Source: a virus (lineage: Duplodnaviria > Heunggongvirae > Uroviricota > Caudoviricetes). Taken from it: DNA of 18,784 nt. The notes below the pieces were generated by a model, which saw only the letters and a program-made list of their open reading frames with translations, searched no databases and was not told the origin of the DNA. The stretch lies in IMG/VR virus record IMGVR_UViG_2778261171_000002. One strand, given 5' to 3'. This document shows positions 13,643 to 16,519 of the stretch, piece after piece. Each line of letters starts with the position of its first letter. Position 1 is the first letter of the stretch. Made by a program: the position numbers and the translations under genes.

Positions 13643-13822
13643 TCCCCGCTTTATCCAAATTGCATTGCCAGAATGCCGACAACAGACTGACATTCAAATC
13701 CTGACTACCTCCAATAGTCTGACCGTACACCTATATAGTTTTAATTTTCATCAATCCATTTAACTATCGTTTAATTGTTGTCACATAGGATTCTGCCGTT
13801 TTTAACAATGCAGGATAATAAG

Positions 13823-14116
13823 ATGAAAAAAATGTTGTTTTCTGCCGCTCTGGCAATGCTTATTACAGGATGTGCTCAACAGACGTTTACTGTTGGAAAC
13901 AAACCGACAGCAGTAACACCAAAGGAAACCATCACCCATCATTTCTTCGTTTCGGGAATTGGACAGGAGAAAACTGTTGATGCAGCCAAAATTTGTGGCG
14001 GCGCAGAAAATGTGGTTAAAACAGAAACCCAGCAAACATTCGTAAATGGATTGCTCGGTTTTATTACTTTAGGCATTTATACTCCGCTGGAAGCGCGGGT
14101 GTATTGCTCACAATAA
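13823..14116 (+). CDS. bor: Bor lipoprotein (97 aa; the track ORF starts upstream at 13775)
   Basis: MKKMLFSAALAMLITGCAQQTF with lipobox LITGC; near-identical in memory to lambda Bor; opposite strand to the lysis genes as in lambda. Confidence 0.9.
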   Translation: MKKMLFSAALAMLITGCAQQTFTVGNKPTAVTPKETITHHFFVSGIGQEKTVDAAKICGGAENVVKTETQQTFVNGLLGFITLGIYTPLEARVYCSQ

Positions 14117-14147: not shown

Positions 14148-14609
14148 CTATCTGCACTGCTCATTAATATACTTCTGGGTTCCTTCCAGTTGTTTTTGCA
14201 TAGTGATCAGCCTCTCTCTGAGGGTGAAATAATCCCGTTCAGCGGTGTCTGCCAGTCGGGGGGAGGCTGCATTATCCACGCCGGAGGCGGTGGTGGCTTC
14301 ACGCACTGACTGACAGACTGCTTTGATGTGCAACCGACGACGACCAGCGGCAACATCATCACGCAGAGCATCATTTTCAGCTTTCGCATCAGCTAACTCC
14401 TTCGTGTATTTTGCATCGAGCGCAGCAACATCACGCTGACGCATCTGCATGTCAGTAATTGTCGAGTTCGCCAGCTTCAGTTCTCTGCCATTTTTGTCGC
14501 GCTGGGCTTTGTAGGTAATGGCGTTATCGCGGTAATGATTAACAGCCCATGACAAGCAAACGATGATGCAGATAACCAGAGCGGAAATAATCGCGGTTAC
14601 TCTGCTCAT
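14148..14609 (-). CDS. Rz: Rz spanin, inner-membrane subunit (153 aa)
   Basis: N-terminal transmembrane segment and coiled-coil body; lambda Rz-like sequence; follows R with a 4-nt overlap. Confidence 0.9.
14207..14389 (-). CDS. Rz1: Rz1 spanin, outer-membrane lipoprotein (60 aa), embedded in Rz in the +1 frame
   Basis: Lipobox VVVGC and proline-rich [15 protein letters not shown]; entirely nested inside Rz. Confidence 0.85.
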
Positions 14610-15082
14610 ACCTCAATCTCTCTGACCGTTCCGCCTGCTTCTTTGAATTTTGCAATCAGGCTGTCAGCCTTATGCTCGAACTGACCATAACCAGCGCCCG
14701 GCAGTGAAGCCCAGATATTGCTGCAACGGTCAATTGCCTGACGAATATCACCGCGATCAATCATCGGTAAAGCGCCACGCTCTTTAATCTGCTGCAATGC
14801 CACAGCGTCCTGGCTTTTCGGAGAGAAGTCTTTCAGGCCAAGCTGCTTACGATAGGAATCCCACCAACGGGAAAGAAGCTGGTAGCGCCCGGCTGCTGTT
14901 GATTTGAGTTTTGGGTTTAGCGTGACAAGTTTGCGAGGGTGATCGGAGTAATCAGTAAATAGCTCTCCGCCTACAATGACGTCATAACCATGATTTCTGG
15001 TTTTCTGCCGTCCGTTATCCGTTCCTTCTGACCATGCCACCATATCGAGGAAAGCCTTACGCTGAGGATTAAGATTTTGCAT
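14606..15082 (-). CDS. R: Endolysin, lambda R-type lytic transglycosylase (158 aa)
   Basis: Sequence [45 protein letters not shown] closely matches lambda R as remembered; ATG start. Confidence 0.9.
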
Positions 15083-15374
15083 TTTTCACCCCTGTCAGTC
15101 GTTCCCAGAAGTACGTCAGTGCAACCGAACCCATCGCACCACTAATCCCCGCTGTCGCGAGAATCATGTAAATACTGAATCCACTTTCGATGCTGATCAG
15201 GCCACCAATAACACCGGTGAATCCTGATACCACTATCTGAGCCAGAGCATTTATCCAACTCCACGTTGCTTTACTCTGCTTCACATCTATCAGGTAGCGG
15301 ACCAGACCGCCCCAACCTGCGATGATCAGCAAAACGAGCCAGAACGCTCCGGCAAGGCTCTCTTTTTCGTGCAT
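15069..15374 (-). CDS. Putative holin (about 101 aa from ATG at 15374; track start is a TTG at 15386)
   Basis: Immediately upstream of and overlapping R; hydrophobic segments; not lambda S-like. Confidence 0.6.
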   Translation of the reverse strand: MHEKESLAGAFWLVLLIIAGWGGLVRYLIDVKQSKATWSWINALAQIVVSGFTGVIGGLISIESGFSIYMILATAGISGAMGSVALTYFWERLTGVKNAKS

Positions 15375-15489
15375 ATGAATAGCCAATATTTCGCCGCCGA
15401 CAAAAGGCCGGGACGTTAAATGTCAGAAATCAGGCTCACGGGGTAATTTAACGACAAAGCACGGAGTTGATGCTCCCCGCAAGCCTGGA

Positions 15490-15514
15490 ATAAAAAAGCC
15501 AGCATGTAGCTGGC
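15490..15514 (-). terminator. Rho-independent terminator in the Q-holin intergenic region (candidate tR')
   Basis: Minus-strand hairpin GCCAGC-TACAT-GCTGGC followed by TTTTTTATT, about 180 nt downstream of the Q stop. Confidence 0.5.
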
Positions 15515-15695
15515 AACAGAGGGTTAAGCAATATCAACTCAACAGCTGAAGACACCCTGGCTGGGGTAGGTTGGAAGGCTACTCACCGTCCAGAAACAGA
15601 AAAGCCCAAAGTTTTAAACCTCGGGCTTGAATTTGGATTACTGCCAGTGCGTACAACATTGGCAAAATATCAGATTTACACGAAATATATACTTT

Positions 15696-16385
15696 TTAAT
15701 CCATTTTTGCAATACTTTGCTGTGAAAATGTCGTCTTTTGTTTTGAACGTGCTTTCGTTAAAAGCAATAAAGCTTGGCTATCAAGCTGTAGAAAAATGTG
15801 CTTCATTGCAACCCAGCGTTCAGTGAATGTCTCAGACCAGTTTTTTGATGTCACTCCCACCAGTGATGCCAGCTCCTGGTATTCATAGGTCTTACGCCCT
15901 GCCAGCTCGTTCTTCACATCCTGTGCCGCCAGCCAGATCAACTTCTTCAAACGTTCCAGTGTTTTACCTGCAATTTTCCTGGTACCCAACAGAGTCTTAA
16001 ACTCGCTCCATGCCCACTGCGTTATGGTGACCTGATGTTCCCAGCGAACACTTTCGCTGTAACTCCACAGCAACCACGCTTTCTGATGTTCTTCGAGAGA
16101 CAGAACCGCGCGGCGCCATGACGAGGTTGAGAACTCAACCTGGCTGACCAGTGCAATGGATGAACCTTTTGCGTACGACTGCTTACCAGAAATCGGCGGA
16201 TTATCCAGCGTAATCATCCTGCCCGTTACCTCATCCAGAATGCGCGGCTTCTTTCGTTTATATGTACCAGTATCAAATTGTGCATGCTCCAGCCAGGCTT
16301 CAAGCTGGCCTTTCGTTGCTCCGCTCAAATCAGCAGTAGCCACAATGAGTTGCTCGCGGACATACTGTAAATATTGGGTATTCAT
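15696..16385 (-). CDS. Late-gene antiterminator Q (229 aa), assigned by position
   Basis: Located between the nin genes (rusA, ylcG-like) and the lysis cassette, followed by a promoter/terminator-like region; its start overlaps the ylcG-like stop (ATGA). Confidence 0.6.
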   Translation of the reverse strand: MNTQYLQYVREQLIVATADLSGATKGQLEAWLEHAQFDTGTYKRKKPRILDEVTGRMITLDNPPISGKQSYAKGSSIALVSQVEFSTSSWRRAVLSLEEHQKAWLLWSYSESVRWEHQVTITQWAWSEFKTLLGTRKIAGKTLERLKKLIWLAAQDVKNELAGRKTYEYQELASLVGVTSKNWSETFTERWVAMKHIFLQLDSQALLLLTKARSKQKTTFSQQSIAKMD

Positions 16386-16519
16386 GCGGCAGCTCCTTTC
16401 AGTGTTTTGGCGTAATTCTTCAGTATCCGGTAATCGGTCAAAACAGAACCGGGGAAACGATATAAGCGCAGGCGCATCCAGCGGTGGCGAAGACGTTCTG
16501 CCATATAAGACTCAAACAT
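16382..16519 (-). CDS. ylcG: YlcG-like small protein (45 aa), translationally coupled between rusA and Q
   Basis: ATG overlaps the rusA stop (TGATG) and its TGA overlaps the Q ATG (ATGA); translation [45 protein letters not shown]. Confidence 0.5.
   Translation of the reverse strand: MFESYMAERLRHRWMRLRLYRFPGSVLTDYRILKNYAKTLKGAAA

Follow-up and report, generated by a model that had tools for sequence, protein, structure and literature searches.

In Q antitermination, transcription starts constitutively at the late promoter pR'; the polymerase is then held by sigma70, which re-binds a -10-like element. DNA-bound Q82, together with NusA, loads onto this paused complex and renders it terminator-resistant (PMC4914094; PMC9388147). 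In the pR' promoter of phage 82, the wild-type transcript begins with AAA (PMC5001585) and the pause-inducing -10-like element carries a TG extension (PMC5001585; PMC3326312). A GCC discriminator is found at +15-17, and the major pauses are at +25/+26, with a U at +25 (PMC5001585). Moreover, 82 pR' has a '-35-like element' to which a sigma region 4-dependent pause at +14/+15 is due (PMC5001585; PMC3326312), and the segment from -31 to +30 is reported to contain the Q-binding element (QBE). The late promoter of phage 82 is reported to give rise to a short RNA regulated by antitermination (PMC7547250). Another short RNA, IsrJ of the Salmonella prophage Gifsy-1, was detected experimentally as a 74-nt species and has a reported role in invasion (PMC2330248).

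The region studied here belongs to a stretch of 18,784 nucleotides (hereafter the window; IMG/VR virus record IMGVR_UViG_2778261171_000002). It represents the late-gene control region of a lambdoid E. coli prophage of the phage 82 type, and as such it is already known; the feature is ordinary because this control region of phage 82 is well studied. The same region is found in 900 of 5426 complete E. coli genomes, 791 of which carry it at 95% identity or more, and also in phage PhiR47_2. With a probability of about 0.88, we propose a phage 82-type mapping in which pR' would occupy 15712..15684, transcription would start at 15677 and run through a first terminator (T1) and then a second one (T2), with readthrough depending on Q82.

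Gene context and mapping of pR'

The elements considered below are the following.

15696..16385, minus strand: Q antiterminator gene of the Q82 family, 229 aa (Pfam PF06323, E 2.8e-94)
15712..15707, minus strand: -35 hexamer of pR', TTGCAA (-35..-30), found by consensus scan within the last Q codons and also present in phage 82
15689..15684, minus strand: -10 hexamer of pR', TATATT (-12..-7), found by consensus scan with a 17-nt spacer and kept as TATAtT in relatives
15677, minus strand: probable transcription start (+1), the first A of AAA, placed with the published 82 pR' anchors, 7 nt past the -10 hexamer
15672..15661, minus strand: sigma70-dependent pause element TGaTATTTT (+6..+14) with GCC (+15..+17), matching the published 82 pR'
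15653/15652, minus strand: expected promoter-proximal pauses at +25 (U) and +26, the published 82 pR' positions mapped here
15665..15641, minus strand: leader stem-loop 1 (+13..+37), from the leader fold, suggestive only
15628..15593, minus strand: T1, a 12-bp hairpin (15628..15602) with the tail TTCTGTTTC, found by scan (-15.1 kcal/mol, z -4.8)
15514..15489, minus strand: T2, a GCCAGC/GCTGGC hairpin (15514..15498) followed by TTTTTTATT, found by scan (6 pairs, -10.7 kcal/mol, z -3.4)
15487..15431, minus strand: S3, a conserved structured element that follows T2 in the late-mRNA leader and precedes the holin start (-27.6 kcal/mol, z -5.0)
15069..15386, minus strand: LydA-type holin gene, the first late gene (PF16083, E 7.5e-22), starting at TTG 15386 or ATG 15374
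15082..14606, minus strand: open reading frame after the holin, overlapping its end by 14 nt and called 'lysozyme R' in the annotation of phage PhiR47_2

Every gene around the gap between Q and the holin lies on the minus strand. Homologues of YlcG, RusA, YbcO and NinB are found upstream of Q. Downstream, the open reading frame 15082..14606 has no Pfam match and is followed by Rz (PF03245). The Q protein matches PF06323 only, the Q82 family of antiterminators, for which the PDB copy searched holds no solved structure; it is 97.4% identical in amino acids, and 99% identical as DNA, to the Q of phage 82 (X92588.1). The holin frame has two candidate starts four codons apart (TTG...ATG, M-A-I-H-M, 15386..15372, minus strand), an arrangement reminiscent of the dual starts of holin/antiholin genes, and no clear Shine-Dalgarno sequence precedes either the TTG or the ATG.

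The ends of the two frames, the Q stop codon (15698..15696) and TTG 15386, delimit a gap of 309 bp (15387..15695), as the initial annotation had stated. It had also described an AT-rich segment just after the Q stop, which is borne out by a GC content of 22.5% in 15660..15719. The gap is without cargo, again as first described: the tRNA scan found no tRNA in the window, no Rfam family reached its gathering score there, and a search for a hidden small gene in the gap returned only open reading frames overlapping the hairpins and 24-35 aa long. On the opposite strand, directly past Rz, there is a gene for a Bor lipoprotein (13775..14116, plus strand; PF06291, E 1e-30), so the prophage does carry a moron, but outside the Q-holin gap.

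A consensus scan of 15000..16500 identified a single promoter-like site, TTGCAA-17-TATATT (15712..15684), overlapping the Q stop and the final codons before it. Because one match against 1.7 expected is not above chance, the weight of this promoter rests on conservation and on the literature anchors. The sole fitting GCC past TATATT is at 15663..15661. When +1 is set at 15677, all four anchors published for 82 pR' (the AAA start, the TG-extended -10-like element, the GCC and the U at +25) fall in register, the TG being at +6,+7, the -10-like TATTTT at +9..+14 and the GCC discriminator at 15663..15661. This composite promoter/pause pattern has a single occurrence in the window and is absent from all 200 shuffled sequences. 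The agreement of these elements with the published positions is a direct observation. The transfer of the 82 pR' map to this prophage relies on the four positional anchors and on homology, by which A 15677 is the probable start. Four features by which a phage 82-type region can be recognized are found here: a PF06323 Q gene upstream, a sigma70 promoter at its end, the set of anchors and a terminator past the pause.

The whole segment from -31 to +30 is present in the window with one substitution, at -27. At this position (15703, minus strand), the window has an A where phage 82 and every other collected locus have a C (AAAAATGG in the window, AAAACTGG in phage 82 and the other loci), and the change turns the C-terminus of Q from KLD into KMD. 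It can also be noted that TTGCAATACTTTGC (15707..15720, plus strand), which overlaps the -35 hexamer of pR', fits the CII-binding consensus TTGC-N6-TTGC. The equivalent site is annotated as the paQ CII site in the record of phage 434; its upstream TTGC is not conserved among the more distant relatives.

Conservation of promoter, pause element and leader

Two sets of related loci were used, 80 from viral contigs (Q 84-100% identical) and 27 enterobacterial loci taken from one representative genome per species (Q 59-76% identical). All 27 genome loci have TTGCA, a 17-nt spacer and TATAtT at the Q stop, then tAAATcTGaTAT; the same promoter, TAAATCTGATAT and a terminator come straight after the Q stop. 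Every one of the 106 related loci with the motif keeps the promoter, TTGCA being present in each of the 44 distinct promoter sequences, and the -10 hexamer TATAtT persists in relatives with Q proteins 59-99% identical. This conservation is observed directly in the collected sequences. Past about +15, the loci split into several unrelated sequence types.

The hexamer of the pause element varies among related loci (TATTTT, TATCGT, TATTGT, TATGCT, TATGTT, TACTTT), and every variant keeps the A at position 2 and the T at position 6, the bases of a -10 hexamer that are read by sigma region 2. Stem-loop 1 pairs the discriminator of the pause element with a downstream complement. Alignment of 23 leaders with MAFFT and RNAalifold gave a near-empty consensus (-0.58 kcal/mol), the hairpins of the variants being out of register, so that folds of single sequences were relied on instead. 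In these, a hairpin is found at the place of stem-loop 1 in most family variants, in differing registers and with z values from -1 to -3.3; the 434 type and Gifsy-1 scarcely form it. Support for a conserved stem-loop 1 is therefore moderate, and the folds are suggestive. TTGCCA was also considered as the counterpart of the '-35-like element' of 82 pR' and dropped, since from the geometry that element is more likely to be upstream; it possibly corresponds to TTAAAA at -22..-17.

A hairpin of at least 6 pairs with a U run is found within +38..+92 in 77 of 82 motif-carrying loci, and the median distance to the end of the T1-type stem plus 8 nt is 84 nt. The arms of the hairpin at this place differ among the sequence types and are always self-complementary. 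Since a hairpin with a U run is kept at the place of T1 across loci, the hairpin 15628..15602 is identified as the first terminator of the family. In loci of Kluyvera, Atlantibacter and Escherichia sp., this first terminator is immediately followed by the ribosome site of the gene that comes next, and in others by tRNA genes. Three loci from viral contigs (L020, L037 and L059) have the same Q, promoter and pause element, then unrelated sequence from about +27, which marks a recombination joint; no T1-type terminator was found in them by the rule of a hairpin plus U run. Other prophages switch sequence right behind the T1 stem.

Terminators and alternative mappings

Six terminator-like sites were found in 15000..16500, compared with 1.5 +/- 1.3 in shuffled sequences. 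The two hairpins that the initial annotation had placed near 15602..15628 and 15490..15514 were both recovered by the scan. Their description as weak and strong, respectively, has to be turned round as far as the stems are concerned, the first having -15.1 kcal/mol and the second -10.7 kcal/mol; the U tract is cleaner in the latter (TTTTTTATT) and interrupted in T1 (UUUUCUGUUU). The RNA predicted from pR' to T1 would be about 77-85 nt long and that from pR' to T2 about 188 nt.

Three other phages have homologues of about 15540..15430 directly before their holin genes: mEp237, whose Q is annotated as similar to that of the Qin prophage, UPF_BP1, a P22-like Salmonella phage, and ENT1, an Enterobacter phage of the Q82 type. 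This segment is thus not specific to Q82 regions. In the T2 hairpins, the arms differ (GCCAGC/GCTGGC, GCCCCG/CGGGGC, GCTCGC/GCGGGC) and the tail (T6ATT) is invariant. On this comparison, T2 is a second, tandem terminator travelling with the lysis cassette, and the Q-specific part extends from the promoter through the pause site. Both mEp237 and UPF_BP1 have a T1-like first terminator (AAGCCCTG.GG...CC.TGGGGCTT) upstream of their T2; therefore, tandem terminators are a common design of late leaders.

Between T1 and T2 (15594..15515, minus strand) lies an insertion slot of about 80 nt, empty here. In ENT1 (L114 336-570), genes for tRNA-Asn, tRNA-Gly and tRNA-Thr lie between the Q gene and the T2-like terminator, its own T1 not having been located, and in several other Q82-type loci tRNAs come straight after T1.

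Past T2, the outer stem of S3 is kept with compensatory changes in mEp237, UPF_BP1 and ENT1. On the four sequences (these three and the window), the paired cells amount to 91.7%, and 6 of the 12 pairs have changed on both sides; 2 of 500 shuffles equal this result, and controls slid along the sequence reach at most 60% pairing. S3 could act as a third terminator, or else serve in RNA processing or stability. Its conserved structure is a minor point that may be new.

The promoter had first been read as TTGCCA/AGTAAT. Both hexamers exist, at 15665..15660 and 15642..15637 (minus strand), with a spacer of 17 nt, and such a promoter would start transcripts near 15630 that end at the hairpin 15514..15498, giving an RNA of about 140 nt; this hairpin, with its T6ATT tail, is indeed a genuine conserved terminator. 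The hexamers nevertheless do not form the promoter. AGTAAT has a G at the essential A (position 2 of a -10 hexamer) and for this reason is not listed by the consensus scan. With +1 at 15677, TTGCCA falls at +13..+18, where it covers the last bases of the pause hexamer together with the discriminator, and AGTAAT at +36..+41, so that both lie within DNA transcribed from the start published for 82 pR'. TTGCCA is inside stem-loop 1 and AGTAAT overlaps its 3' end; relatives with a stem-loop 1 of the GTCGCC...GTCGAC type have neither hexamer, yet they keep the upstream promoter and the pause element. Moreover, a start near 15630 would sit inside the T1 hairpin. The promoter that we map is about 47 bp upstream of this pair, with its -35 inside the Q coding sequence, and a start near 15630 appears very improbable. 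Because the hairpin 15628..15602 is reached first, the main short RNA is expected to be about 77-85 nt long, rather than about 140 nt.

A different question is which terminator matters most. If T1 were leaky, pR' could be as mapped here while the principal Q-sensitive stop, and the main RNA of the lysogen, would be at T2. An RNA of about 188 nt would nearly match lambda 6S RNA (194 nt), the U tract of T2 is the more canonical one, that of T1 being interrupted, and T2-like terminators are conserved before holin genes in four phage lineages. However, T1 has the stronger stem, a terminator at its position is kept throughout the Q82 family, and in several relatives it is the sole terminator before the first late gene or the tRNAs. 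IsrJ of Gifsy-1, with its 74 nt, also ends at the terminator equivalent to T1. A main stop at T2 is thus unlikely, although less so than a start near 15630.

In the mapping that we prefer, with pR' at 15712..15684 and T1 as the first stop, the host sigma70 RNA polymerase would initiate constitutively at A 15677. Sigma70 would then re-bind TGaTATTTT (+6..+14) and the polymerase would pause at +25/+26 (15653/15652). Without Q, the polymerase would leave the pause and stop at T1, yielding a two-hairpin RNA of about 77-85 nt, and the polymerases escaping T1 would stop at the tandem T2 (about 188 nt). Once accumulated, Q82 would bind its DNA site near the promoter and load onto the paused polymerase, which, so modified, would read past T1 and T2 into the genes for the holin, the endolysin, Rz and the head. 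T1 and T2 would hence stop transcription in the lysogen, whereas induction would lead to readthrough of both. By extending the published system to this prophage, we infer where its transcripts start, how efficient each terminator is and how the prophage responds to Q. On the whole, what had been seen in this gap at first is partly confirmed, and the way it was interpreted is partly supported.

For annotation, it is useful to consider that the Q82-type late promoter overlaps the last Q codons, with a first terminator about 50-80 nt downstream; a promoter search in the middle of the gap would pick up the sigma70 pause element instead. The natural variation of promoter, pause element and leader collected here could also help studies of Q82 loading. 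Beyond annotation and variation, the finding is a textbook feature of a classic system of antitermination and sigma-dependent pausing.

Comparison with IsrJ, StxS and the late regions of phage 82 and lambda

When Rfam was scanned permissively, isrJ (RF01393) matched over its full length at 15680..15601 (28.5 bits, E 0.013), below the family's gathering score of 37 bits. By score, the window is therefore outside the family, whereas Gifsy-1 and 11 of the 19 loci scanned among the 27 related ones pass. In all 11, as in the window, the match starts 16 nt past the Q stop. The copy in the window, sub-threshold and at the same distance as in these relatives, is therefore regarded as a positional homologue with diverged hairpins, and T1 corresponds to the terminator of the Rfam isrJ. 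Gifsy-1 IsrJ shares with the present locus the promoter TTGCAA-17-TATATT, the first 14 transcribed bases as they stand in the Rfam model, and a two-hairpin layout closing with a terminator. In contrast, stem-loop 1 and the terminator arms are of other sequence, which accounts for the 28.5 bits obtained against 37, and no counterpart of the invasion role is known in E. coli. In Gifsy-1, unlike here, isrJ sits after anrP, an isrK-orf45-anrP module being inserted between Q and isrJ. This module matches the Rfam families of the C4 antisense RNA (P1-type) and c4-a1b1, and looks like a P1 immI-like insertion as judged from these matches.

IsrJ appears from this comparison to be the terminated leader of the Q82-type late promoter of Gifsy-1 (L001 1501-1610, 665-940). 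This identity, which was not found stated in the literature examined, may be new. The detection of IsrJ as a 74-nt species in turn gives indirect experimental support to a short RNA starting at the equivalent of about 15680..15677 and ending at the first terminator.

The StxS RNA of Shiga-toxin phages, compared here by description only, is likewise a by-product of a pR' that is constitutively active and constitutively terminated in lysogens (PMC7547250). It differs in that Stx phages have about 258 nt from pR' to tR' and that RNase E processes the RNA to 74 nt (PMC7547250); there are no stx genes here. A trans-acting role being reported for StxS and for the Salmonella homologue IsrJ, one may ask whether the leader RNA of this region, about 80 nt long and with two hairpins, could likewise be a trans-acting regulatory small RNA in the lysogen. 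By analogy this is conceivable, if rather doubtful. With pR' constitutive, such an RNA would be made continuously in about one sixth of complete E. coli genomes.

The likeness to phage 82 is much closer. The Q genes are 99% identical as DNA, the -35 hexamer is identical, and the AAA start, the TG-extended -10-like element, the GCC at +15-17 and the U at +25 are in register, one base differing, at -27. The comparison with phage 82 DNA reached as far as the Q stop, and the downstream lysis cassette may differ from that of phage 82 itself.

The initial annotation had proposed that this phage has the architecture of the lambda pR'/6S/tR' region. A promoter after Q, a short terminated RNA and the logic of Q control do hold, as in the region of phage 82; the positions given to the promoter and the first terminator do not, and Q is of another family. 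As in lambda, a constitutive promoter after Q is followed by a sigma70-dependent promoter-proximal pause at which Q loads, and transcripts made without Q end early as a short RNA (PMC4914094; PMC9388147; PMC7547250). In contrast, the Q of lambda belongs to PF03589, with no obvious sequence similarity to the PF06323 protein found here; the lambda pause is at +16/17, compared with +25/26 in 82 pR' (PMC5001585); and the short RNA of lambda ends at +193, compared with the 77-85 nt predicted here. The locus is thus not of the lambda type, having a Q that matches PF06323 only and a pause element placed for +25/26. Lambda, too, reportedly has tandem terminators after pR' (Luk and Szybalski in 1983). 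The resemblance to lambda is functional and not one of homology.
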